This document shows positions 3,712-22,596 of a stretch of 28,397 nt of DNA, piece after piece. Origin of the DNA: a virus (taxonomy: Duplodnaviria > Heunggongvirae > Uroviricota > Caudoviricetes). A program made the position numbers and the translations under genes. The notes under the pieces are model-generated. The model worked only from the letters and a program-made list of their open reading frames with translations, had not been told where the DNA came from and ran no database searches. The DNA is taken from the IMG/VR virus record IMGVR_UViG_2663762992_000009; one strand, 5' to 3'. Each line of letters begins with the position of its first letter. The first letter of the stretch is position 1.

Positions 3712-4267
3712 TCCCCCCTCCTTGTTATTTATACGCGTGCAATGCGACTATGATTGCCGCACGTCCCTTGTCGGCATGGACGTTTAGCACGTGCTGGCAT
3801 CGGCGTTGCCCTGTTTGTTGGATAGAAATCATGTTGTACTCGGAGAGAAAAACGGAAATGGCAAATAGTGGACAATATTCATAAATAGAGAGAATCCACA
3901 CGGTCGCCGCCCCGTAACAGGTTGGATCGCATAACAGGCCCCATCAAATGAGAATGAATATCGATTATACTAATTAATGCTTAGAACAGGATCATATACC
4001 TGTATCAGGTCAGTCCACTCTTCACCTAAACGTGCAGATGTGTTAATCCGTCTCCCTGCTTAGCACCACTCTTTTGGTGATATACCCGTTTTGGCATAGT
4101 CGGCGAGAGACTGGTGTTGCAGCACTGTCCAGTCCTGTTTTACCATAAACCCCCTAGTTTTATCTTTTAATTAATAGATATTAGTAAGATGAATCAATGA
4201 TGTGCTCAGAGCAAAGCACATCCTGCGTTGCTTTTAGTGCCATTTAACCTATAGAGAGATATGACGC

Positions 4268-4513
4268 GTGAGAAAGTTAATCTGTCTAATTTCGTTCGTT
4301 GCAACATGCGGATTCGGGTATCAGGCATACCAGCATCATGGACTGGCTTCTCTACTGGCTTTCTTAGTCAGCTTAGGGGCTTTTCTAACTGCTGTAGCCA
4401 ACTTAATAAGTGACAAGAAGAAGTCATCCTCTATAAGCCAAGTGATTGGTAATAACTCTTCAGGAATACAAGTCAGTGGTAATTTAACCATTAATGAAAA
4501 GGACAAAAAATGA
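4268..4513 (+). CDS. small membrane protein (two predicted TM helices), first gene of AT-rich moron
   Basis: GTG start with GAGAG about 9 nt upstream; hydrophobic segments LICLISFVATCGF and LASLLAFLVSLGAFLTAVANLI; visibly AT-rich; stop overlaps the next start (ATGA). Confidence 0.5.
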   Translation: MRKLICLISFVATCGFGYQAYQHHGLASLLAFLVSLGAFLTAVANLISDKKKSSSISQVIGNNSSGIQVSGNLTINEKDKK

Positions 4514-5418
4514 GTCTTTTCGATCATAAGTCGGGTCAACATGTCGGAGATGGTTCTACCGCAATCCAAGTAACCGGTGATGCTATCATTGGTAATACTA
4601 CTACTGAAGTAGTTACTATCTGTGAATTAGTAGTTCAAGCACAAATGGCTTCTTTAAAAGAGGAAGCATATAAACTTGTAAACCAACGAGCGATAGAATT
4701 TGGTAATCAGATTGCAGCTAAACTTTCTAGTGATCTTGATCATAAATTAAAAGAGAAATTATCCGACCCTGACATTCAATATTCGATGAACCAAGCTGTA
4801 ACTCAGGTGGCTCGAAAAGGATTTGATGAAAAATCGGAGTTACTTAAAGAGCTAATCGTTTCTAAAATTCAAACTGAAGAAGAAGAGGATAGTATAGTTA
4901 TAGATCACGCTCTTGAGGTGACATCTAAATTAACAACAAACGACATTAAATTTCTCTCTCTAATATATTACCTCAGAAACATAAATAAGATACGAAACGG
5001 TATTAACATGACAGCTCTTGCTGAAAGAAATGAAACTCACTTTGGATTAATTGGCTTTACCGTAGAGCAAAACCATTCAGCCCACAAAGAATACTATGCT
5101 CGCTATGATATTGATTACATTAAATTCTTAGATAAAATAGAGTCTTTGAGAAAAATAAACATTGATCTCCTCAGCTTAAAAGGCGTTATCTTCACAGACA
5201 AGCAATACATAACAAACTATCAAGACCTACTTGAAAAAAGGACTGGAATCACCAGCTTTGAAAGCGATGAGATGTTCTTTGAAACATTTCCTGCTTTAAA
5301 GTTAACTCTAGATGCATTTGGCGTATCGACCATAAATGACTTTAATTCATATGTTTTAAATCCAATTGGCAACCTGATTGCTCAAAACTTTCTTCGGGCT
5401 CGGAACTTCCTTCAATAG
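4510..5418 (+). CDS. hypothetical 302-aa protein, second gene of AT-rich moron (candidate defence/abortive-infection or conversion function)
   Basis: Long ORF in an AT-rich segment; AAGGA RBS about 8 nt upstream; translationally coupled to the upstream small ORF; opposite orientation to the flanking late genes; no family recognised. Confidence 0.7.
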   Translation: MSLFDHKSGQHVGDGSTAIQVTGDAIIGNTTTEVVTICELVVQAQMASLKEEAYKLVNQRAIEFGNQIAAKLSSDLDHKLKEKLSDPDIQYSMNQAVTQVARKGFDEKSELLKELIVSKIQTEEEEDSIVIDHALEVTSKLTTNDIKFLSLIYYLRNINKIRNGINMTALAERNETHFGLIGFTVEQNHSAHKEYYARYDIDYIKFLDKIESLRKINIDLLSLKGVIFTDKQYITNYQDLLEKRTGITSFESDEMFFETFPALKLTLDAFGVSTINDFNSYVLNPIGNLIAQNFLRARNFLQ

Positions 5419-5597: not shown

Positions 5598-6170
5598 TCA
5601 TTTAAAATGATTTACAACCTTAACGTCTCTGTCCTTTAACTCCATAATTTTTCCTAGTTGCTTGCGTTCCAACTCAATTTTACTGATACCAGTCAGTTGG
5701 TTATTCGCCTTCTCAATAGTAGCCAGCAGCGGCCCGATCCAGAGAACAGCCTGGCAGTATGTCAGAGAGCTGGCGGTAATGGTGTCACCACCGGCTGCAT
5801 CAGCGTTCCGGGGATCGGGGTACATTGCGCTGGCACGTAAACGGTACGCGTGGTCGAGCAGCCCGTCAGCGATATCAGCAGGAACAGGCAAATCACAGGT
5901 TTTTTCACGACGGAGTATCTCCCGGTATTCAATAACTGTTTTTTCGGAACCGGCATCAATCAGGGAGTTAAGGCGGCTGGTATTATCAGCAACCTGATTA
6001 AACCGGTTAAAGTTGAAAACCTGAGTGGCGATAACCTGCCCCTGTAGCGCGTTATCATTGCGAAGGATCCGGTTATCACTTTCTGATACAGCAAGGTCGG
6101 CCCGGCTGAATACCAGCATAACAACCACAACCAGGAACGAAATTATTGCGATAATCGTTATACGGTTCAT
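5598..6170 (-). CDS. Rz: i-spanin Rz
   Basis: N-terminal TM helix (ITIIAIISFLVVVVMLV) followed by a coiled-coil periplasmic domain; last gene of the lysis cassette; contains an embedded +1-frame lipoprotein ORF. Start placed at the ATG at 6170. Confidence 0.8.
   Translation of the reverse strand: MNRITIIAIISFLVVVVMLVFSRADLAVSESDNRILRNDNALQGQVIATQVFNFNRFNQVADNTSRLNSLIDAGSEKTVIEYREILRREKTCDLPVPADIADGLLDHAYRLRASAMYPDPRNADAAGGDTITASSLTYCQAVLWIGPLLATIEKANNQLTGISKIELERKQLGKIMELKDRDVKVVNHFK
5762..5908 (-). CDS. Rz1: o-spanin Rz1 (lipoprotein embedded in Rz, +1 frame)
   Basis: Embedded ORF with signal peptide and lipobox (LISLTGCS) and a Pro-rich C-terminus. Start placed at GTG 5908 with GGGAGA 9 nt upstream; the ORF-track start at 5959 is an alternative. 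Confidence 0.65.
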   Translation of the reverse strand: MKKPVICLFLLISLTGCSTTRTVYVPAQCTPIPGTLMQPVVTPLPPAL

Positions 6171-6174
6171 GGCT

Positions 6175-6312
6175 CTACCACCAGCGAATCGCCACAATCA
6201 GGCGCGCAATACCATACAGCACAACCGTCAACGCCACAGCCCGTATAGCCCATGCCGTAGCACTACTGATTTCTTTTGTTAACGGAGCATCTATTTCAAG
6301 GCCGTTTTTCAT
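6175..6312 (-). CDS. possible small membrane protein within lysis cassette
   Basis: Short ORF with a hydrophobic C-terminus (AIRAVALTVVLYGIARLIVAI) between the endolysin and Rz; overlaps the Rz start; the start codon is uncertain. Confidence 0.3.
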   Translation of the reverse strand: MKNGLEIDAPLTKEISSATAWAIRAVALTVVLYGIARLIVAIRWW

Positions 6313-6460: not shown

Positions 6461-6883
6461 TTAACCCGCCAGTTCGAGCGCGCGGATAAACGTATCAAAG
6501 CTGTATGGCTGGCTACCGTTCTCGTGCTTAATAATGGCCTGCAACAGCTTCATCATGAAACGACTGTCACTGGTATCAATGCGCTGGTCGGGAGTAACAC
6601 CCGTCGCCTGAGCCACGTTGTTGATATACGCCAGCGTGTTGTTCTCGTTCGGCGGCGCCCAGCGTTTAATAATGCCGGTAACCGTGTTCAGCCCGTGCTT
6701 ACGCTGGTAATTGCGCAGGATGATGATCATCGCCCGGATACCATACTCAGGCGTAGTGAACTGGCAGAATGATTTATCAGTGCGCTGTGCTTTGGGTACC
6801 AGGCCCTGCCACTCATCACCCCACCGGATATTGCCGGGGTTGTTGTTGCGGATCCCGCGAGAAATTTTACTGGTTCTCATCAT
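6461..6883 (-). CDS. putative endolysin (muramidase-like), assigned mainly by position
   Basis: 140-aa ORF immediately after the holin, start overlapping the holin end; soluble, no TM segment; motif RNNNPGNIR. No similarity to lambda R or T4 lysozyme recognised by eye. Confidence 0.55.
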   Translation of the reverse strand: MMRTSKISRGIRNNNPGNIRWGDEWQGLVPKAQRTDKSFCQFTTPEYGIRAMIIILRNYQRKHGLNTVTGIIKRWAPPNENNTLAYINNVAQATGVTPDQRIDTSDSRFMMKLLQAIIKHENGSQPYSFDTFIRALELAG

Positions 6884-7202
6884 TTATCCCTGCCCGTTTT
6901 TTAAGCGCACTGATGGCAATTTCACGTAATTTATCCACGCCGACGAAGCCAATCACGCCACCGACAAAGGGTGATATCGATACAGGAAGGCCAAACGCAT
7001 CCAGCGCACTGGTGATACATAAAGAAAGGGCGCCACAAAGGACGCCCTCAAGCCATTTATTTTTTCGCGTGACGCCATCGTATATCAGGCGGGCATAAGC
7101 AATGAGTCCGGCCATTGATGCCCCCAGTAACTGGGGCCACGCATTTTTGAGTCCGGTCAAAACCGCCGCCCAGAATTCAGGGTTTTTGTCATTCATTTTC
7201 AT
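6867..7202 (-). CDS. class I holin, lambda S-like, with dual-start motif
   Basis: C-terminal region resembles lambda S as recalled (LDAFGL ... GFVGVDKLREIAISALKKRAGINDENQ); hydrophobic helices; starts MKM (ATG at 7202 and 7196), like the lambda S107/S105 dual start; SD-like GGTGAGG upstream. Confidence 0.8.
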   Translation of the reverse strand: MKMNDKNPEFWAAVLTGLKNAWPQLLGASMAGLIAYARLIYDGVTRKNKWLEGVLCGALSLCITSALDAFGLPVSISPFVGGVIGFVGVDKLREIAISALKKRAGINDENQ

Positions 7203-7243
7203 ATACCTCACCCCCGGTTTCCGGATGGTGCTGTGTACTGGTG

Positions 7244-7268
7244 AAAAAATTCAGCCTTCCGGGCTGAG
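7244..7268 (-). terminator. candidate intrinsic terminator between tRNAs and holin (minus strand)
   Basis: Hairpin TCAGCC (7251-7256) / GGCTGA (7262-7267) with a 5-nt loop; on the minus strand it is followed by a run of six U. Confidence 0.45.
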
Positions 7269-7467
7269 TATGCTGCAGATCTGAATACGAAAAAGGCCAC
7301 GCAAATGCGCAGCCTTTATAACGCGAGTTTTATTATTCGGAGGCACTCCATCCAACAAACCACCCATGGTTGCCAGGATTTTAACGGAGTGCTTTTGGAT
7401 GAGCGCTGGACCGGAAGGTCAGTATTTTTACACAGCAATTTTGCAAAAAGCAGCGCCCATTCAAAAC

Positions 7468-7543
<76 letters not shown>

Positions 7544-7546
7544 TTT

Positions 7547-7623
7547 TGGTGGCCCTTGCTGGACTTGAACCAGCGACCTGGCGATTATGAGTCGCACGCT
7601 CTGACCAACTGAGCTAAAGGGCC
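7547..7623 (-). tRNA. tRNA with CAU anticodon (Ile2-lysidine type or Met)
   Basis: Full cloverleaf on the minus strand: acceptor GGCCCTT/AAGGGCC, D-arm GCTC/GAGC, anticodon loop CTCATAA, T-arm GCTGG-TTCAAGT-CCAGC, CCA end; closely resembles the E. coli ileX sequence as I recall it. Confidence 0.85.
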
Positions 7624-7630
7624 ATGACGC

Positions 7631-7737
7631 TGCGGTGCCGGACCGCTATTATTCCGGTAGATTGCGCGCTGATACACAATCTGCTTCGCGAAAATTCTCC
7701 ATTTCAGCAAGCCTCAACGCTAGTGAGATTCACCGCA
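7631..7737. repeat. repeat unit A (~100-nt element with complementary termini TGCGGTG...CACCGCA)
   Basis: Shares 5' end tgcggtgccgg and 3' end cgctagtgagattcaccgca with the units at 8860-8963 and 9074-9166; abuts the tRNA-Ile gene. Confidence 0.7.
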
Positions 7738-7938
7738 ATGAGAAAAATTTATCGTCCGCAGATTCTGGCAGGCAAGGCCTCTTCCAAATAAATTACTCAA
7801 AATGCGAAACTGCGCACGGAGAATTAAACCTTCAAAAAGCTAAGACATCACACTTGACCGGTTCAGAAAAAAATCATTATGTTCTTTCTGCTTCTCCCAT
7901 GAAGCGACCTCAATTATTTTCTGCTTATGTGTGATTTT

Positions 7939-7966
7939 GCCCGTTCTGTATGACGGGCTTTTTTCA
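7939..7966 (+). terminator. rho-independent terminator hairpin, plus orientation (element copy 1)
   Basis: GCCCGT (7939-7944) / ACGGGC (7953-7958) with an 8-nt loop, followed by TTTTTT; the preceding ~45 nt resemble the element at 9328-9400. Confidence 0.6.
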
Positions 7967-8014
7967 ACGTCATCATCCCTGTTCATTAAATGTGTATTCA
8001 TCCATCCAGGTTTA

Positions 8015-8449
8015 CTAATTCCATACAGTTCCCCTGGCGACCGAATAACGCCCTGCCCCCAGTAATGCAACTGACAGAGAGCCAACAAAAAAATACACCA
8101 GGCTTTCTATTCCCCACGCGCCAGTACTTTCGAGCATCCATGTTTCCTCTACCCCCACCAGAAGCCAGGCCACAATCATTGTAAAAGCCAGCAACAGTGC
8201 TGCGGGGCGAGTAAGAACCCCAAGAATAATCAGGCCTGGAGCCAAAACCTCTCCCACAATTGCTCCGTATGCGAAAAATCCAGGTAAGCCGTTAGCTATA
8301 AGCATGCCGCTAATACCTTCAACTCCTGCAAAGAGCTTATGCAAACCATGAAATAACATCAGCCCACCAACAGCAAGTCTTAACAGGAACTTACCAAAGT
8401 CAGCATGGGATAAGATCTGGTTAATTTTATTCAGTACGATAGTAATCAT
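8015..8449 (-). CDS. DoxX-family inner-membrane protein (cargo gene in the Q-to-lysis region)
   Basis: 144-aa ORF with four hydrophobic segments and a DoxX-like N-terminus (FGKFLLRLAVGGLMLFHGLHKL); GGAG SD 9 nt upstream of the ATG at 8449. Confidence 0.7.
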   Translation of the reverse strand: MITIVLNKINQILSHADFGKFLLRLAVGGLMLFHGLHKLFAGVEGISGMLIANGLPGFFAYGAIVGEVLAPGLIILGVLTRPAALLLAFTMIVAWLLVGVEETWMLESTGAWGIESLVYFFVGSLSVALLGAGRYSVARGTVWN

Positions 8450-8859
8450 TGTTCATCACTCCAAGTAAAAAAGGAATGAGAAAAACAAATCACCAGCAGG
8501 CTACAACAGTCAATCTGTTCGGCTGTAAATCACAAACAAGTTAAATAGACTGTTAACACCCACCCTACCTGAATTATTACGCCAAAAAAGGAGATAAAGC
8601 GATAAATCTTATTAGCATGTAACTATTGTTCAACTCAATAGAGCCCATACACTAAGTTTTATTGCCCCTAATAATCCGATGACCAACAGAATGATGCTAA
8701 TTAAGAATACCTGATTCGTTGTAAATCTGATACTGCGTAAATATGCCTTTAGAGCATTAGCAGTTCTGTATTTATTCTGCATTTTCCCGCTCAGAAATCA
8801 CATCAATGACCAATTTAAAAGTAGAGCCCGAATAATCTATCTCCACGACCCGATATGAG

Positions 8860-8963
8860 TGCGGTGCCGGTCGCAACCCGGTGAAACGTATCCATGGTGT
8901 GGTGCAATACATACTGGCAGAATGAATAGTGCCACACCCCTCACGCTGGTGAGATTCACCGCA
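8860..8963. repeat. repeat unit B
   Basis: Same conserved termini as unit A. Read on the minus strand it shows a 7-bp terminal helix, a D-arm-like hairpin (CTCA-CCAGCG-TGAG), a long central hairpin and a T-arm-like hairpin (CCGG-GTTGCGA-CCGG). Confidence 0.7.
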
Positions 8964-9073
8964 GGAGGTAACGTATAAACGGCAGGTGCTTTAGATCAAG
9001 CTTTTTATCATGTCGGCGAAATGAAAAAGGGCTCACCGAAGTGAGCCCTGAATTACCGCCGTTTTCAATTTGC

Positions 9074-9166
9074 CGCAGTGCCGGGTGCCTCCCGATGGTA
9101 TTAACCGCAACGTCAACAGTGGAAGCGAAACCTGACGATGCCCCTACGCTAGTGGGATTCACTGCA
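9074..9166. repeat. repeat unit C (more diverged copy)
   Basis: 5' end gcagtgccgg and 3' end cgctagtgggattcactgca match units A and B with a few substitutions. Confidence 0.6.
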
Positions 9167-9372
9167 ACGGGGGGAACCTATTACCCGCAGACAGCGGCTG
9201 ACAAGATATTTATTTTGCTGAAATGCCAAAATGTGAATCTGCGCATATGAAATTAAACAGAACTTAAACAATTGCAGATACGAACTTGATAGGTTTATGA
9301 AGAAATTACTACGGTCCTCAGGCTTCCCCCTATGAAGCACTTAAGCCTCTTACCTTTTCCAATTGTGATTTT

Positions 9373-9400
9373 GCCCGCTATCTGACGCGGGCCCTTTTTT
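9373..9400 (+). terminator. rho-independent terminator hairpin, plus orientation (element copy 2)
   Basis: GCCCGC (9373-9378) / GCGGGC (9387-9392) with an 8-nt loop, followed by CCTTTTTT; upstream sequence is conserved with copy 1 (atgaagc ... tgtgattttgcccg). Confidence 0.65.
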
Positions 9401-9416
9401 ATACGGAGAACTGAGA

Positions 9417-9491
9417 ATGCCGTGTCATGAAAAAATGGCTATCGCAATCTGTGTTATTGCGCTCATCTTCGCACTGATTTTTGGCAAGTAG
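9417..9491 (+). CDS. candidate 24-aa hydrophobic small ORF (MPCHEKMAIAICVIALIFALIFGK)
   Basis: ATG at 9417 preceded by GGAGA with 7-nt spacing; single hydrophobic helix; lies between a plus-strand terminator and a minus-strand terminator hairpin. Confidence 0.3.
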   Translation: MPCHEKMAIAICVIALIFALIFGK

Positions 9492-9506
9492 GTCCACCTG
9501 AAGCCG

Positions 9507-9541
9507 TCTTTTAAAAACGACAAAACCCGCACCGTGGCGGG
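9507..9541 (-). terminator. candidate tR'-like intrinsic terminator downstream of Q (minus strand)
   Basis: GC hairpin CCCGC/GCGGG (9526-9541); on the minus strand it is followed by UUUUGUCGUUUUUAAAA; about 270 nt downstream of the Q stop. Confidence 0.45.
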
Positions 9542-9807
9542 TTCATCTGGTGTTCATGTTCTGCATCCTTGACCTCGCGATACAGCTTTGCGAAGCATAC
9601 AGTGATTGAAGCAGTTTATGGCTCAAATTGCAATACTTTTTCAGCGACGTAATTTGACCTTAATCATATGCTTTATTACTCTTCGCCTGCATTTAAACAC
9701 TGATATAACTTAGTTATACTTCCATTCATCTTGCACATTGATATTTCCACAAAAATCACCCGCAGCTTTTTACTGTCAAGTTTCAGTTAGTGGATAAGCA
9801 CAACTCA

Positions 9808-10347
9808 TCACACATTCCTATCAATGGAATCCCGTAGCGGGATATAAAGCATGTATTCAACCATATACAGCCATTGGTCGATTCGTCGCCGACAGGTAAC
9901 ATAACTCCAGTCAGGGTATTTTTCCTGAAGTTTCTCAGCTATCTTTCGCTTACTCATTCCCCGTCCTTCGTAACGCTGGTGAAGCAGTGCCTTTAGTGCG
10001 GGATGATCTGCCAGAACTGCCCCGATAACCCGGTCGATTATCAGTGCTTCAGAATCAGTACAGTATGCAAGGTAGCTTTTCTGCTTACCGTTCAATATCT
10101 CACGTAAAAATTGCTCCAGTTCAGGCCTGGTAGTGCCTGATTTTTTAAGCAGCCTGAGCGCATCACGGGCGCCTGTGCGGGTGATTTTTTTACTGACCAG
10201 CAACTGATTGAAGATATTTCCCGGATGGCCATTTCCGATATAAGACCAGCGCCCCCACATTCTTAGCTTTCCCTGTACCCATAACGTCTCAAGCGTAGTG
10301 AGACGAAGCATTTCACCAGGTTTACCTGTCGTGACCGGGTAGATCAT
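9808..10347 (-). CDS. late-gene antiterminator Q-like protein
   Basis: 179-aa ORF immediately upstream of the tRNA/lysis region and after the nin genes; basic C-terminal region with HTH-like character (KRKIAEKL ... RRRIDQWL); start overlaps the upstream gene's stop. Confidence 0.75.
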   Translation of the reverse strand: MIYPVTTGKPGEMLRLTTLETLWVQGKLRMWGRWSYIGNGHPGNIFNQLLVSKKITRTGARDALRLLKKSGTTRPELEQFLREILNGKQKSYLAYCTDSEALIIDRVIGAVLADHPALKALLHQRYEGRGMSKRKIAEKLQEKYPDWSYVTCRRRIDQWLYMVEYMLYIPLRDSIDRNV

Positions 10348-11415: not shown

Positions 11416-12456
11416 TCATCGAACATTCGGTGATATTGCTATCTTTAGATCACTAGTAAGCATCGCGGCCTGCTTTTCTAAAGCCTCTAACATAAAATCT
11501 GTTTTGTCTTGTATCCTAACGAGTAAATAGAATGGTTCACTACTCGTACAGGTTAAACGTGATGTTGTAAAGTCATCACGGTGAGGTATTAATGCGCGAT
11601 AATTTCCTTCAGCGATAAACATAAAGCGAGCATTAGGATGTTCACTGAGCCACATATACTTATTCCTGCAAAAGAAAGTATCGCGTGTGTCATACTTCAT
11701 GGCAAATCCAAAACCGACTTTTATGATGGATAACGTATGTATACTAAATGCAACATATGAAATGCAGCCAATAAGAAATAATGGGACGAAAACTGACATT
11801 AAATAGTTATTATCATCATCAGTTGGCGTTACTTTCCTTTTCTTTACTTTTGAGGGCATCAATATTAAACAAATAATGCAAACAAGGTAAATGATGCAAT
11901 ACAATATAAAAATAAAAAGTAATGCTACAACTGCCGTCATGAGTTTATTGAATGTAGCATCAAATGGAATGTCAAACAAATTGGAAATTAGCGAGCGTGC
12001 AATATAATATGAAATTAATGATACAATTACCCACACATATTTAATTCCCAGGTTAATTTTTATGGCTATGTTTTTTTCTTCATTATCGAACGATTTTATG
12101 TGAGATGATATTGTGTATGTAATACACAATATCGTCACAAAAGCCAATGTATATGGAATGATGGTATTTATATAACCAATAACGTTAAAGGAAACAATTG
12201 TTAATAAAAACAGAAATACCGACAACAGTGCGGCATCTTGCGTTTTTTTATAATTTTTTCGAAGGCGAACGGCCTGTTGACTGGATGACTTTTTATTCCA
12301 ATTATTTTGTACGATTAATCCGCTGAGAATAATCATACCAAACCAAATAAGAATGGGGTATACAGGATCACTCTGAGGTATGATGACGAGCACTGCCATA
12401 AAAAACAATAAACTGTGAACAATCCCGAGGTGTAAGGAAGAGTATATACTTTTCAT
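11416..12456 (-). CDS. AT-rich polytopic membrane protein with C-terminal soluble domain (cargo; candidate superinfection-exclusion/defence protein)
   Basis: 346-aa ORF, strongly AT-rich; about seven hydrophobic segments in the first ~230 aa, then a ~110-aa hydrophilic tail; AAGG SD upstream of the ATG at 12456; about 180-bp gaps on both sides. Confidence 0.7.
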   Translation of the reverse strand: MKSIYSSLHLGIVHSLLFFMAVLVIIPQSDPVYPILIWFGMIILSGLIVQNNWNKKSSSQQAVRLRKNYKKTQDAALLSVFLFLLTIVSFNVIGYINTIIPYTLAFVTILCITYTISSHIKSFDNEEKNIAIKINLGIKYVWVIVSLISYYIARSLISNLFDIPFDATFNKLMTAVVALLFIFILYCIIYLVCIICLILMPSKVKKRKVTPTDDDNNYLMSVFVPLFLIGCISYVAFSIHTLSIIKVGFGFAMKYDTRDTFFCRNKYMWLSEHPNARFMFIAEGNYRALIPHRDDFTTSRLTCTSSEPFYLLVRIQDKTDFMLEALEKQAAMLTSDLKIAISPNVR

Positions 12457-17145: not shown

Positions 17146-17580
17146 ATGAAAAAAAACAACGAATCAGCTCAATACGAGACTTCAGCCAGAAGGATCAAAC
17201 AGGTCCTGTATGAATTAGGCTGGAACCAAAGTCGCCTGGCTAAAGAAATTGGGGTTTCAGCTCAGGCGGTACAACAATGGGCAAAAGGTACTTCTCGACC
17301 GAATGGCCCTAATCTAACTCGACTTTCTGAAGTCACAAGCAAACCTGAAGCATGGTTTTTCAGTGATGTCAGCGGGTTATCTGAGAGTCATGCAGTACAT
17401 TTACCAGAAAGTAATGGTTCAGACTTTCTCCCGCTTAGCGATGAAGAGATCAGACTGCTAACTGTCTTCAGGAAATTTCCTTCTGTAGAGAGTAAAAACA
17501 TGCTGTTAGCGTTTGAGATGAGACTTCAGGAGATAAAAGAATACTATTCCAAATACGCTAATCCCAATAAAAACCGATAG
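17146..17580 (+). CDS. CI-like prophage repressor, HTH_XRE type, short form without a LexA-like peptidase S24 domain
   Basis: 144 aa; N-terminal HTH (NQSRLAKEIGVSAQAVQQWAKG); the C-terminal ~60 aa is too short for an S24 domain; divergently arranged to the cro-like gene. Confidence 0.8.
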   Translation: MKKNNESAQYETSARRIKQVLYELGWNQSRLAKEIGVSAQAVQQWAKGTSRPNGPNLTRLSEVTSKPEAWFFSDVSGLSESHAVHLPESNGSDFLPLSDEEIRLLTVFRKFPSVESKNMLLAFEMRLQEIKEYYSKYANPNKNR

Positions 17581-18383: not shown

Positions 18384-18648
18384 AGTGAAAATCATAACAG
18401 TGCTGTGTGTAGTCTTTGACGGTATCCGTTAACAAAGTTTTCCTGGCTGATACCGTCCTTTTTCAGAATGAATTTTATAGTGTGGTGAATGCGGCTCAGC
18501 GCACGTGACACAGTTAAAAACATGTCAGTCCTTCATCTGTTGATGGGTGGGAATGTTCGTCGGCAGTAATGGTTAGCTGTTTACTGTCACCGGGAGGCAC
18601 CCGGCACCACACTCCAAAATTCATTGTGTTACCAGAATGGAGACAACT

Positions 18649-19491: not shown

Positions 19492-22400
19492 ATGAGTGAT
19501 AAGAAAGAAGATTTCGCGCTGTACTGCCCTGTTAAAAATGAAGAGGCCAGGAAACGACTTGGAATAAAAGCAGGCTTTTTCTGGGCAACTGCAAAAAAAT
19601 TATCTGTGGCTGTTTCCCGCTGTATTGCTGCTATGGACGATAAGGGGTATGACGAGGATGACTTTAAAAAACCTGTTCGCGTCAATTACCCCGTCGTTAA
19701 CGACCTGCCTCCTGAAGGCGTGTTTGATACTGAATTCTGCAACCGTTACGAAAAAGGCGGTCAGGGTGGTATCACAATGGTACTTATCCCCGGCGCTGTT
19801 CCCGCCGATCCAATGCACGGCGAAGTCGGCAGGGATATTACTGGCAGCGGCAACGCAGACGCAGACGCAGACGCAGGCACAGACGCAGATAATGCTACGG
19901 ACAATACCGAAAGTACGCTCCTCCCCGCTTACGCTTATAACGTCAACGGCGAACTGATGTCGGAAGTGGAAAAGGAAATGTCGCAGCCTGTTTCAGGACT
20001 AAGTCTGCCACTTCGTTTCCTGGCGCAATTTAATAACGACTGTCCACAACATCAGGTCACACCAGAGCGTTTACGGGAGTTAAACCTTACAGAGCAGGAT
20101 CCCGACAGTCGTACCGGAACTATTTTACTCGCCATCCAGAACAGAAAGGAACAGCTCGAAAAACTGGACACAAAAAACCTGCATCCTTTGGCGACGTACA
20201 TTGAAAAAGTATTTCCCTGCGGAAAACGACCACAACTCAATGATGTCATTAATTTTATCGATGCCGTACTTAATACAGACTATGTCGATCGCGGACTGCT
20301 CGTTAAGGAATGGTGCGAAGGTCGTCGAGCCGCGTGCGTAGAGCATGTAACAGCACCAGAAACCAGGCGTGATAATACTGTGTCAGCGCAGACGGAAACG
20401 AAGACTACTGTCACTGAACGTCCGCGTCGTAGCGAAAAAACAACGCACCGGACGATTAATTATGAAATTGGCTGTGGCTTATATGACGGCGAGCTGGATC
20501 TTCATAACCTGAGGGAACCGCTGGATTTTGCGAAACGCATTATGGCGAAAGACCGGGAAGACTGGAAAGTATGGTCAGACACAATCAACTGCATCCCTGG
20601 CATCCTGAATTATGACCGCCAGACCATTATCGAGATGGTACGAAAAGCCCCCACCCCGACTTATCACAGTGCTGCACTGCGCCGCGAGTGGTGTGATTCT
20701 TATCTGCGAGCCTGGGGACGGCTCGATCCCGACTGGAGCCAGAGCGCCGCTGTCAAAACAGCAGAGTCACATGAAGATGTCTGTGCTGATATCAGGAAGG
20801 CCGGAAAGCGCCTGCGTGAAATTGAATCAGGAGTTGGGATCAATGAAGAAAAACAGACGACACAGGGAGAACTGGCAGATGAACCGTCAGCGCCTGAATC
20901 AGTGGAACCGGCTTCAGCTGAACATCAGCAGAATACGCAGCCGCTGGATGCTGAGGCATCTGTAAACACCACTAAAACGGAATTCGATGTATTTGCTCTA
21001 ATGCAGAACTCATCTGTTTATGGCAGCAAAAACACACAGGAGACGACCAGCAATGTGCAGGTTCAGGACGCTGAAAAGGATGAAAAACAGGCTGGTACTG
21101 AAGTTCAGTCAGGCGAAAGCAGTCTGGGAACTGGTGAAGAGTCAGATACCAGACAGCAAGCCGATGTAAACCAGAATACGGATTCTGTCGCCCAAAATAG
21201 CGATTCTGTAAACCAAACTGAACCAGTTTTGGCACAAACCGAGCCAGAAGTGCAATCTGACGAACCGGCTGTTGTTTACCCCGCTTACTTCGAACCAGGC
21301 CGCTATGAGGGTCTGCCGAACGAGGTTTATCACGCAGCCAACGGTATCAGCTCGACAATGGTAAAAGATGCGCGGGTGAGCCTGATGTACTTCAATGCGC
21401 GCCACGTAGAGAAAACCATTATCAAAGAACGCTCTCCTGTACTGGATATCGGTAACCTGGTGCATGCACTGGCGTTGCAGCCAGATCAACTCGATGAAGA
21501 ATTCAGCATTGAACCCGTAATTCCGGAAGGTGCATTTACCACCACGGCAACGATCCGCGCGTTTATTGATGAGCACAACGCCAGCCTGACAGCGATGCTG
21601 TCAGCCGACGACATCAAAGCACTGTTAGAAGAGTACAACGCCACCCTTCCTGCTCAGGTTCAGTTAGGTGGTTCCGTGGAGGAAACTGGCCAGAGCTATA
21701 TGTCGCTGCCAGAAGAGTTCCAGCGTCTCGAAGCGGACAAGAAGCAGACCGCAGCGGCAATGAAAGCCTGCATCAAGGAATACAACACCACACTGCCTGC
21801 ACAAGTGAAAATCAGCGGTAGCCGTGATGCGTTACTCGAGCAGTTAGCAATCATCAATCCTGACCTGGTGGCGCAGGAAGCGCAGAAGCCCGCGCAGTTG
21901 AAAGTGTCCGGCACCAAAGCGGATCTGATTCAGGCCGTGAAGTCTGTTAATCCTGATGCCATCTTCGCCGACGAACTGCTGGATGCGTGGCGCGAAAATA
22001 CGCAAGGGAAAGTGCTGGTCACCCGCCAGCAACTGAGCACTGCACTGAGCATTCAGAAAGCCCTGCTCGAGCACCCTACAGCGGGCAAGCTACTGACACA
22101 CCCGAGCCGCGCCGTTGAGGTGAGCTACTTCGGTTTTGACGACGAAACCGGTCTGGAAGTCCGCGTTCGTCCCGACCTTGAGATCGATCTTGACGGGGTG
22201 CGCATCGGCGCCGACCTGAAAACCATCAGCATGTGGAACATTAAACAGGAAGGTCTGCGCGCCAAACTGCACCGCGAAATCATCGACCGTGACTACCACC
22301 TGAGTGCTGCCATGTATTGCGAGACCGCAGCGCTTGACCAGTTCTTCTGGATTTTCGTCAACAAAGACGAGAACTACCACTGGATCGCCATCATCGAGGC

Positions 22401-22596
22401 ATCCGCCGAACTTCTGGAACTGGGCATGCTGGAGTACCGCAAGGCAATGCGCGCCATCGCTACCGGCTTTGACACTGGCGAGTGGCCAGCGCCGATCACC
22501 TCCGGTAACTCCGATGAAATAGCCGACTACACCGACGAACTGAACGATTTCGACACACGCCGCCTTGAAGCGCTGCGTACGGCACAAGGGGAATGA
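19492..22596 (+). CDS. recE: RecE-like exonuclease VIII (C-terminal PD-(D/E)XK nuclease domain, long disordered N-terminal/central region)
   Basis: 1034 aa; C-terminal region carries the catalytic-type pattern RPDLEIDLDGVRIGADLKT; large acidic, low-complexity central region; followed by a translationally coupled annealing-protein-like gene; position matches Rac-type recE-recT order. Confidence 0.75.
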   Translation: MSDKKEDFALYCPVKNEEARKRLGIKAGFFWATAKKLSVAVSRCIAAMDDKGYDEDDFKKPVRVNYPVVNDLPPEGVFDTEFCNRYEKGGQGGITMVLIPGAVPADPMHGEVGRDITGSGNADADADAGTDADNATDNTESTLLPAYAYNVNGELMSEVEKEMSQPVSGLSLPLRFLAQFNNDCPQHQVTPERLRELNLTEQDPDSRTGTILLAIQNRKEQLEKLDTKNLHPLATYIEKVFPCGKRPQLNDVINFIDAVLNTDYVDRGLLVKEWCEGRRAACVEHVTAPETRRDNTVSAQTETKTTVTERPRRSEKTTHRTINYEIGCGLYDGELDLHNLREPLDFAKRIMAKDREDWKVWSDTINCIPGILNYDRQTIIEMVRKAPTPTYHSAALRREWCDSYLRAWGRLDPDWSQSAAVKTAESHEDVCADIRKAGKRLREIESGVGINEEKQTTQGELADEPSAPESVEPASAEHQQNTQPLDAEASVNTTKTEFDVFALMQNSSVYGSKNTQETTSNVQVQDAEKDEKQAGTEVQSGESSLGTGEESDTRQQADVNQNTDSVAQNSDSVNQTEPVLAQTEPEVQSDEPAVVYPAYFEPGRYEGLPNEVYHAANGISSTMVKDARVSLMYFNARHVEKTIIKERSPVLDIGNLVHALALQPDQLDEEFSIEPVIPEGAFTTTATIRAFIDEHNASLTAMLSADDIKALLEEYNATLPAQVQLGGSVEETGQSYMSLPEEFQRLEADKKQTAAAMKACIKEYNTTLPAQVKISGSRDALLEQLAIINPDLVAQEAQKPAQLKVSGTKADLIQAVKSVNPDAIFADELLDAWRENTQGKVLVTRQQLSTALSIQKALLEHPTAGKLLTHPSRAVEVSYFGFDDETGLEVRVRPDLEIDLDGVRIGADLKTISMWNIKQEGLRAKLHREIIDRDYHLSAAMYCETAALDQFFWIFVNKDENYHWIAIIEASAELLELGMLEYRKAMRAIATGFDTGEWPAPITSGNSDEIADYTDELNDFDTRRLEALRTAQGE
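19855..19890 (+). repeat. in-frame hexanucleotide tandem repeat (GCAGAC)n within the recE-like gene
   Basis: Six consecutive 6-nt units (gcagac x3, gcaggc, acagac, gcagat) encoding ADADADAGTDAD. Confidence 0.9.

Follow-up and report, generated by a model that had tools for sequence, protein, structure and literature searches.

Prophages of enteric pathogens commonly carry small structured RNAs of the STnc100 family, with one copy right after the Shiga toxin (Stx) genes. This copy lies 75 nucleotides (nt) downstream of stx2B and overlaps EcOnc27/sRNA103, an Hfq-bound small RNA (sRNA) (PMC12370729, PMC12711010, PMC7873438), which has been detected on northern blots (PMC12711010, PMC7873438, PMC4104026). 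According to Tree et al., at least eight prophages hold pairs of Hfq-binding sRNAs in the 'moron' insertion zone, from pR' to the lysis genes, and the positions of these pairs are conserved (PMC4104026, PMC7873438). Similarly, PasD1 and PasD2 of enteropathogenic Escherichia coli depend on Hfq, have been confirmed on northern blots, and have many partners in RIL-seq data, in which interacting RNAs are ligated and sequenced (PMC8550237). According to a preprint, PasD and STnc100 have a common ancestor; the multiple PasA and PasD copies that it describes are distant from one another and not in tandem, and it mentions neither a pseudoknot nor promoters (bioRxiv 10.64898/2026.05.13.724894). Sigma-factor binding at STnc100 copies of Salmonella LT2 has been observed by chromatin immunoprecipitation with exonuclease treatment (ChIP-exo; PMC10794520), and Hfq-bound expression is known for the E. 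coli relatives only (PMC4104026, PMC8550237). Here, we analyzed a 28,397-nt stretch of tailed-phage DNA (Caudoviricetes; IMG/VR record IMGVR_UViG_2663762992_000009), referred to at its full length as the window, which carries three units of about 100 nt, A, B and C, between the gene for a Q-type antiterminator and the lysis genes. We found that these units are diverged paralogous copies of the STnc100/PasD/EcOnc27 family: C has the canonical form; A and B have diverged further from it and lack a terminator. The family was already known, and the window copies belong to it.

An earlier note on this DNA had described the three units as copies of one element with complementary termini, and we found that they are real and have both ends in common. 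The 21-nt common end ACGCTAGTGAGATTCACCGCA occurs at 7717-7737, 8943-8963 and 9146-9166 with 0, 1 and 2 mismatches, respectively, while its chance expectation is 0.00 (100 dinucleotide-preserving shuffles of the window); we designated the units repeat family D1. The outer bases pair as the note had proposed, with TGCGGTG opposite CACCGCA in A and B and GCAGTG opposite CACTGC in C, and the closing stems comprise 7-8 base pairs (bp). Overall pairwise identity among A, B and C is just 59-62%, and the likeness is concentrated at both ends. The similarity of A and C reaches beyond the units on the minus strand, over some 250 nt upstream (7738-7990 versus 9167-9420, 61% identity). A fourth copy, which has diverged further, lies in the early-left operon (Table 1).

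Assignment to the family rests on several models. The curated cut-off of the Rfam STnc100 model (RF02076) is 47 bits; C passes it (66.2 bits), and A (30.6 bits, E=3.4e-4, model 31-147) and B (23.3 bits, E=0.025) fall below it, as matches at a permissive threshold. To avoid circularity, we built an independent hidden Markov model (HMM) from 19 cores of other contigs, with no window sequences. This model recovered all four window copies at full length: the fourth copy with E=6e-10, C with 1e-9, B with 2e-6 and A with 1e-4. Our own model scored A at 60.8 bits, B at 52.7 bits and the fourth copy at 43.7 bits (E=8e-8). The earlier note had allowed that a known family of repetitive extragenic elements might account for the repeats. 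This holds in part: the repeats do match a curated family, and that family (RF02076) is one of RNAs. Beyond the window, our pattern scans yielded 120 viral-contig loci, and the scan of genome contigs gave mostly chance matches in GC-rich genomes and at least five genuine loci, in Lelliottia, Enterobacter (two), an Enterobacteriaceae isolate and E. coli E69, which we take to be E2348/69. The core in the last of these (L235) scored 86.6 bits with the Rfam model.

We derived the architecture of the core from an alignment of 22 diverse cores. A closing stem, P1, of 7-9 bp has an invariant inner GGUG/CACC and is followed by an unpaired AAUC and by hairpin P2 (consensus CCCC...GGGG, loop UGUGCGG); after a variable centre, hairpin P5 (consensus CCGGG-AGGCA-CCCGG) runs straight into the 3' strand of P1. 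P1, P2, hairpin b and P5 are all present in the folds of units A, B and C and of the fourth copy, as expected of STnc100, and the minus-strand topology that the note had described (closing stem, 5' hairpin, central domain, and a 3' hairpin that adjoins the closing stem) matches these folds. In P1, both sides have changed in five of the eight pairs among the 22 sequences, and none of 500 shuffles reached the observed covariation. Across the structure, 92% of cells are paired, as opposed to 41-51% when the partners are slid; for P2 the figure is 85% only, and its pairing is ambiguous because of runs of C and G. Column-based pair counts were limited to P1, P2 and P5 because the MAFFT columns of the central domain are off by one between variants.

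In most members, a central hairpin stands just before P5, and its loop pairs with a segment just after P2 to form an H-type pseudoknot. The two strands of this pseudoknot are compensated in at least 12 sequence combinations, such as AUCAGCA/UGCUGAU, CCAGUC/GACUGG, CUGGUGU/ACACCAG and UUUGAUCG/CGAUCAAA. A core's own partners pair over 6.4 bp on average, compared with 4.6 bp for swapped partners, and none of 20000 permutations reached the observed sum. We used this partner-permutation test instead of a loop-shuffle test, which was uninformative (median p 0.05) because the loops are just 6-10 nt long. Within the window, the pseudoknot is present in A, where the loop UCAGC of hairpin AGAUUG/CAAUCU can pair with an upstream GCUGA, and in the fourth copy. 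B and C hold other central hairpins, that of B being long (GGUGUGG/CCACACC) and followed by a P5 of the form CCGG-GUUGCGA-CCGG.

The helices of P1 and P5 contain nine G-U cells and one A-C cell, an excess that favours the minus strand as the RNA strand. Because folding energies do not discriminate between the strands, we assigned the strand from the terminators, the promoter-like sites, the Rfam match and the G-U bias. The assignment agrees with the note's proposal of a structured RNA read from the minus strand.

The setting of the units is likewise that of STnc100: a lambdoid prophage, the interval from Q to the lysis genes, and the late strand. The order on the minus strand is Q, a terminator, the units, a small open reading frame (ORF) and doxX, two tRNA-type genes, two terminators, the holin gene and two further ORFs. 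Across the family, hexamers resembling -35 and -10 elements stand at a fixed distance upstream of P1, and transcription is predicted to start at P1 or a few bases before it. The promoter-like sites of A, B and C align, with invariant columns CTTG...ATA, and that of B lies directly past the terminator of C. Of 70 distinct family contexts, 53 have a terminator call no more than 90 nt from the core, mostly at 20-30 nt, in a simple scan of which a few calls are doubtful. An intrinsic terminator follows shortly after the core of C (9049-9028), and none follows that of A or B.

Tandem arrangement of such genes is not peculiar to the window. Contig L066 (6984-7930) holds four complete promoter-core-terminator genes in about 900 nt, some 265 nt apart and all with different centres, and has a fifth copy at 5012. 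By our own model, L018, L031 and L093 have three clustered copies (one weak, at 33 bits), and L005, L007 and others have two. These arrays indicate that several copies per late region are the norm.

The earlier note had also suggested that the units are arrayed with tRNA genes. We found that they are, and that this arrangement recurs in other contigs (L010, L018, L272/L309, L297/L303 and L314). L010, a related late region, has a 140-amino-acid (aa) ORF of the same type as the window after its holin gene; its four cores are interleaved with four tRNA matches, and two of the cores stand 4-8 nt ahead of a tRNA. In L018, tRNAs are followed by at least two STnc100 genes, to which our own model adds the weak third core. 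In a targeted scan, we found further distinct cores 6-9 nt ahead of tRNA-Ile(CAU)-type or tRNA-Arg genes (L272/L309, L297/L303, L314). The 3' end of unit A is itself 7 nt ahead of a tRNA, and in other contigs at least five distinct cores, with two types of tRNA, show a core-to-tRNA spacing of 6-9 nt. Downstream of other terminator-less cores, an ORF starts within 13-80 nt.

Table 1. Units of the STnc100 family in the window and the features around them.
Feature	Position	Strand	Details
Q-type antiterminator ORF	9808-10347	-	Pfam DUF1133 and Phage_antitermQ
Terminator-like hairpin, ~265 nt past the Q gene stop	9544-9523	-	Terminator scan
Complete STnc100-family sRNA gene, including unit C	9018-9195	-	RF02076, 66.2 bits (cut-off 47), E=2.8e-12, model 1-206
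Unit C promoter-like site	9178-9204	-	TTGTCA 9204-9199, 15-nt spacer, TAATAG 9183-9178; 9 nt ahead of P1
Unit C core	9074-9166	-	P1 GCAGUG/CACUGC, AAUC, P2 hairpin, central hairpins, P5 CGGG-AGGCA-CCCG
Unit C intrinsic terminator	9028-9049	-	AGGGCUCAC-UUCG-GUGAGCCCU, then U run
Unit B promoter-like site	8972-8999	-	TTGATC 8999-8994, 16-nt spacer, TATACG 8977-8972; 8 nt ahead of P1
Unit B core, no terminator	8860-8963	-	P1 UGCGGUG/CACCGCA, P2 CUCAC-CAGC-GUGAG
50-aa ORF, hydrophobic C-terminal half	8630-8782	-	First cargo ORF, starts 77 nt after B; no Pfam match
DoxX-family cargo gene	8015-8449	-	Pfam PF07681, E=1e-20
Unit A promoter-like site	7748-7775	-	TTGCCT 7775-7770, 16-nt spacer, GATAAA 7753-7748; 9 nt ahead of P1; weak hexamers
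Unit A core, no terminator	7631-7737	-	P1 UGCGGUG/CACCGCA, P2 CUCA/UGAG, P5 CCGGA/UCCGG
tRNA, anticodon CAU (ileZ-like; ARAGORN: Met)	7547-7623	-	ARAGORN; Rfam 71.2 bits; directly downstream of A
Second tRNA-like gene (UCU, Arg-type)	7479-7536	-	44.8 bits, model 8-63; no ARAGORN call
Two terminator-like hairpins, past the tRNAs and ahead of holin	7251-7317	-	First terminators downstream of B and A
Holin ORF	6867-7211	-	Phage_holin_3_1 on record for the counterpart in L242 (99.98% identical to the window)
140-aa ORF, endolysin position	6461-6883	-	Assigned by position; no Pfam match
Rz-like ORF	5598-6197	-	Assigned by position
Fourth copy	18479-18614	+	P1 GUGUGGUG/CACCACAC, exact P5, pseudoknot ACAGUUAA/UUAGCUGU, degenerate P2

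Of the tRNA genes that the note had placed beside the units, one is called by ARAGORN, and its homologues are annotated ileZ in Stx phages. The second matches positions 8-63 of the Rfam tRNA model only, and the sequence 5' of its D arm, as read, is not complementary to the 3' acceptor strand. As a side observation, an Arg-type tRNA of L010 (2638-2695, minus strand) has the same acceptor defect as the window at 7470-7545 (minus strand), and the sister prophages L241 and L243 have three intact tRNAs where the window has the defective Arg (UCU) gene.

The fourth copy lies between a helix-turn-helix (HTH) repressor gene (17146-17580) and a RecE-like gene (19492-22596), 24-36 nt ahead of a 100-aa ORF. 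L014, L031, L068 and L092 likewise have a single copy on the opposite strand, 8-12 kb away from those in the late region.

These arrangements suggest how the units may work. We consider it probable that C is a stand-alone Hfq-type sRNA and that A and B serve as heads, each a promoter plus leader, of the tRNAs and the cargo, respectively. The core would be a compact RNA of about 100 nt, made from the transcribed strand of lambdoid prophage operons. At C, a sigma-70-type promoter would set the start at or just before P1, and the terminator some 25 nt past the core would release a stand-alone sRNA of about 150-180 nt. Judging from its homologues EcOnc27/sRNA103 and PasD1/2, this sRNA would be made in the lysogen, be bound and stabilised by Hfq, and base-pair with other RNAs. 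A transcript started at B would extend into the small ORF and doxX, and one started at A would run into the two tRNA genes, in both cases up to the terminators at 7317-7251. As a folded 5' head, the core would permit expression in the lysogen independently of Q, and its base-paired 5' end could shield the RNA from decay that depends on the 5' end. At A, a cut by RNase P at the 5' end of the tRNA would free the core, which would keep a tail of 7 nt. In the lytic phase, polymerase that started at the late promoter and was modified by Q would read through all of the units. If terminator-less copies do drive and shape the expression of phage tRNAs and cargo genes in the lysogen, this would help to account for the expression of 'moron' genes and prophage tRNAs when the late antiterminator is absent. 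Both the fixed spacing between core and tRNA and the covarying pseudoknot offer concrete starting points for experiments.

Several observations weigh against assigning these functions to the units. Our consensus promoter scan listed none of the promoter-like sites of A, B and C, whose hexamers are weak, and A and B could be transcribed only within the late transcript. The fold z-scores are modest, from -1.3 to -2.8 (A: -2.78), and do not separate the two strands. The unpaired positions of the core are more conserved than a simple stabiliser would need. Finally, neither A nor B reaches the Rfam cut-off, and the loops of P2 and P5 in both depart from the family consensus, so that they could be decaying copies.

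We consider it unlikely, on balance, that A and B are such remnants, that is, copies that lost their terminators when tRNAs or cargo recombined in behind them and that are now carried passively in the late transcript. Their Rfam scores of 30.6 and 23.3 bits (cut-off 47), the lack of a terminator after either, the weak and unlisted hexamers, and the departure of their P5 loops and P2 sequences from a near-invariant consensus are all in keeping with decay, and a terminator-less PasA variant has been read as a possible pseudogene (bioRxiv 10.64898/2026.05.13.724894). However, all of the helices are intact through compensated changes, including CUCAC/GUGAG for CCCC/GGGG in P2 and an A-U pair in the P5 of A, and A keeps the pseudoknot with a sequence of its own. 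In addition, the 6-9 nt junction recurs in at least five cores, with two tRNA types and in unrelated contigs, a pattern that random decay does not predict. If A and B have merely decayed, they would represent ordinary turnover of sRNA genes in a mosaic prophage.

A more general form of the promoter-plus-leader proposal, to which we give a similarly low probability, is that the core does not just scaffold one class of Hfq sRNA and is instead a portable 5' head module of lambdoid prophages. A promoter together with a folded RNA starting at the first transcribed base would then be set ahead of a terminator (yielding an sRNA), a tRNA (at 6-9 nt) or cargo ORFs such as doxX, and also in the early-left operon. 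Such a head might set the lysogen expression, stability or processing of what lies downstream, possibly via a specific protein or by mimicry of an acceptor/T-arm stack.

Less probable still is a cis-acting RNA, either a riboswitch-like attenuator or a put-like antiterminator, that governs read-through in the late and early-left operons. The fold is aptamer-like, with a multi-helix junction, a pseudoknot and highly conserved unpaired nucleotides; a terminator stands at a fixed short distance in most members; and the copies are always co-oriented with their operon, one of them within the early-left operon's 5' region, where an ORF begins 24-36 nt further on. Yet by inspection, no conserved alternative pairing between core and terminator is evident, as the terminators vary widely while P1, P2 and P5 are constant. 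Tandem arrays of four to five units, each with its own promoter and terminator, are unlike the arrangement of attenuators, and P2 is degenerate in the early-left copy. Furthermore, the relatives accumulate as discrete Hfq-bound RNAs with many partners in trans (PMC8550237, PMC4104026), which indicates that termination after the core does occur. On these grounds, we rejected a put-like antiterminator as the identity of the units. We also rejected a late-promoter leader RNA, since a separate terminator just after Q (9544-9523) is the candidate for that part; this minus-strand hairpin is likely the end of a short late-promoter leader transcript separate from the STnc100-type units.

The earlier note had raised the possibility that the units derive from tRNAs, and we now regard it as highly improbable that they are degenerate tRNA genes or tRNA mimics, which tRNA enzymes would process or recognise because the closing stem and the 3' hairpin imitate the acceptor/T-arm stack. 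P5 does abut the 3' strand of P1 without a spacer, giving a stack of 12-13 bp like that of acceptor and T stem; P2 is placed where a D arm would be; and in many contigs tRNA genes lie interspersed among the units. Phage T4, moreover, has two stable RNAs of unknown function within its tRNA cluster. Against this, the Rfam tRNA model found no match to the units at E<=10 (7300-9900), and ARAGORN called 7547-7623 alone and none of the units. The core alignment has no D or T loop, no anticodon arm and no conserved 3' CCA past P1: the conserved loops, UGUGCGG in P2 and AGGCA in P5, are not D or T loops, the latter having 5 nt in most members as opposed to the 7 nt of a T loop, and the centre is a pseudoknot or variable hairpins, not an anticodon arm. 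The likeness between units and tRNAs is topological only, consisting of P1 stacked on P5 and of P2 at the D-arm position.

The note had further suggested that the units might be recombination footprints that brought in the doxX cargo. An identical DoxX protein is found in six prophage contexts, all of which keep the order C, DoxX, A, tRNA-Ile; our own model, applied to two of them, confirmed B in both. In pairwise comparisons among these prophages, the window from about 9641 to 7547 is one block, 99.4-99.5% identical. Homology breaks at about 9907/9641, near Q, and at 7547, the 3' end of the tRNA, and at none of the units; homology to L244, for instance, stops exactly at the tRNA 3' end and gives way to a different lysis module, and the downstream tRNA set of L241 differs. 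With breakpoints away from the units, the footprint idea is not supported. A viral-contig scan for A/B-type ends found no cargo-free relative or empty site, the single contig recovered carrying the same block. Although the conserved ends and variable centres, the copies on both sides of the cargo in a mosaic 'moron' insertion zone (PMC4104026), and the homology offered by several copies per late region would suit DNA-level junctions that mediate capture or exchange of doxX between prophages, this is very doubtful in view of the intact block in six prophages, the lack of an empty site, the members' own promoters and terminators, and the compensation in P1 and the pseudoknot together with the G-U over A-C bias, which indicate selection on RNA. 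An attC-like site was likewise rejected as the identity of the units, given the position of the breakpoints and the RNA-type covariation.

Between window positions of about 9907 and 9641, some prophages with the same DoxX block carry an insert that is absent from the window: in L241 and L243-L246 (locus positions ~3990-4800), matches to isrK and C4 antisense RNA and an ORF6N-domain gene stand immediately after Q and resemble an immunity module of the P1/P7 type. A near-identity search of 7400-9850 against 5,426 E. coli genomes gave 5,425 that match the tRNA segments only, and the same search against a phage collection matched tRNAs only. With 1-25000 of the window as the query, the phage collection contained no close phage; the best matches were RecE/RecT segments, with a patchy match of about 80% to Gifsy-1/2. 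Elsewhere in the window, ORFs of 81 and 302 aa overlap each other on the opposite strand, just past the lysis genes (4268-5418, plus strand). The 302-aa product has a precomputed Pfam match, Vpar_1526, in sister loci and may be another inserted cargo gene. Upstream of Q, a 346-aa multi-pass membrane ORF (11416-12456, minus strand) has no Pfam match on record, and related prophages have other genes at this position.

The window also contains two paralogous short units on the opposite strand, at about 7880-7966 and 9325-9400 (plus), with terminator hairpins at 7939-7958 and 9373-9392. They have the common 3' sequence UGUGAUUUUGCCCG and stand back-to-back with the promoter-like sites of A or C; a promoter-like site for the first lies at 7854-7883. 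We found no homologues of these units among the other loci compared. They match neither the AsxR nor the AgvB model, both of which found nothing in the window or in the Stx2a_F349 locus, and their sole match is a weak one to Esr41 (19 bits).

In the published accounts of the family that we consulted, we did not find the covarying pseudoknot, tandem arrays of two to five copies, terminator-less copies as 5' heads, a fixed core-tRNA spacing, or a conserved extra copy in the early-left operon. With STnc100/EcOnc27, the window copies have in common the core sequence, the helices, the late strand and the zone between Q/pR' and lysis, and C has the full layout with a terminator. They differ in that A and B lack a terminator and score below the cut-off, in their middle regions, and in a host that is an enterobacterium other than E. 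coli; in addition, they precede tRNAs and cargo, whereas the published copy follows stx2B. Spacer RNAs from tRNA transcripts, such as the 3' external spacer of glyW-cysT-leuZ, act as Hfq-bound sponges. Unit A would resemble these by analogy, as a regulatory RNA freed from a tRNA precursor. Such spacers are, however, short, unstructured, 3' or internal, and chromosomal, while unit A comes from a phage and forms a 5' leader that is large and folded.

PasD1 and PasD2, which we compared by description only, likewise adjoin Q in lambdoid prophages and are reported to be structural relatives of STnc100 (PMC8550237; bioRxiv 10.64898/2026.05.13.724894). Their copies are described as lying far apart in the genome, whereas the three window copies lie within 1.5 kb. 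The published sense/antisense sRNA pairs consist of an STnc100-type RNA and a short opposite-strand RNA with its own terminator, between pR' and lysis (PMC4104026, PMC7873438). The window also has two opposite-strand units; in the published pairs the opposite-strand RNA is downstream (convergent), while in the window it is upstream of the core (divergent). Finally, the pR'-tR' leaders, lambda 6S RNA and the Hfq-bound StxS (PMC7873438), are similar in being short constitutive late-region transcripts that end at an intrinsic terminator. In contrast, the STnc100-type genes of the window lie further downstream and can be multi-copy, and the window has a leader terminator candidate of its own at 9544-9523.

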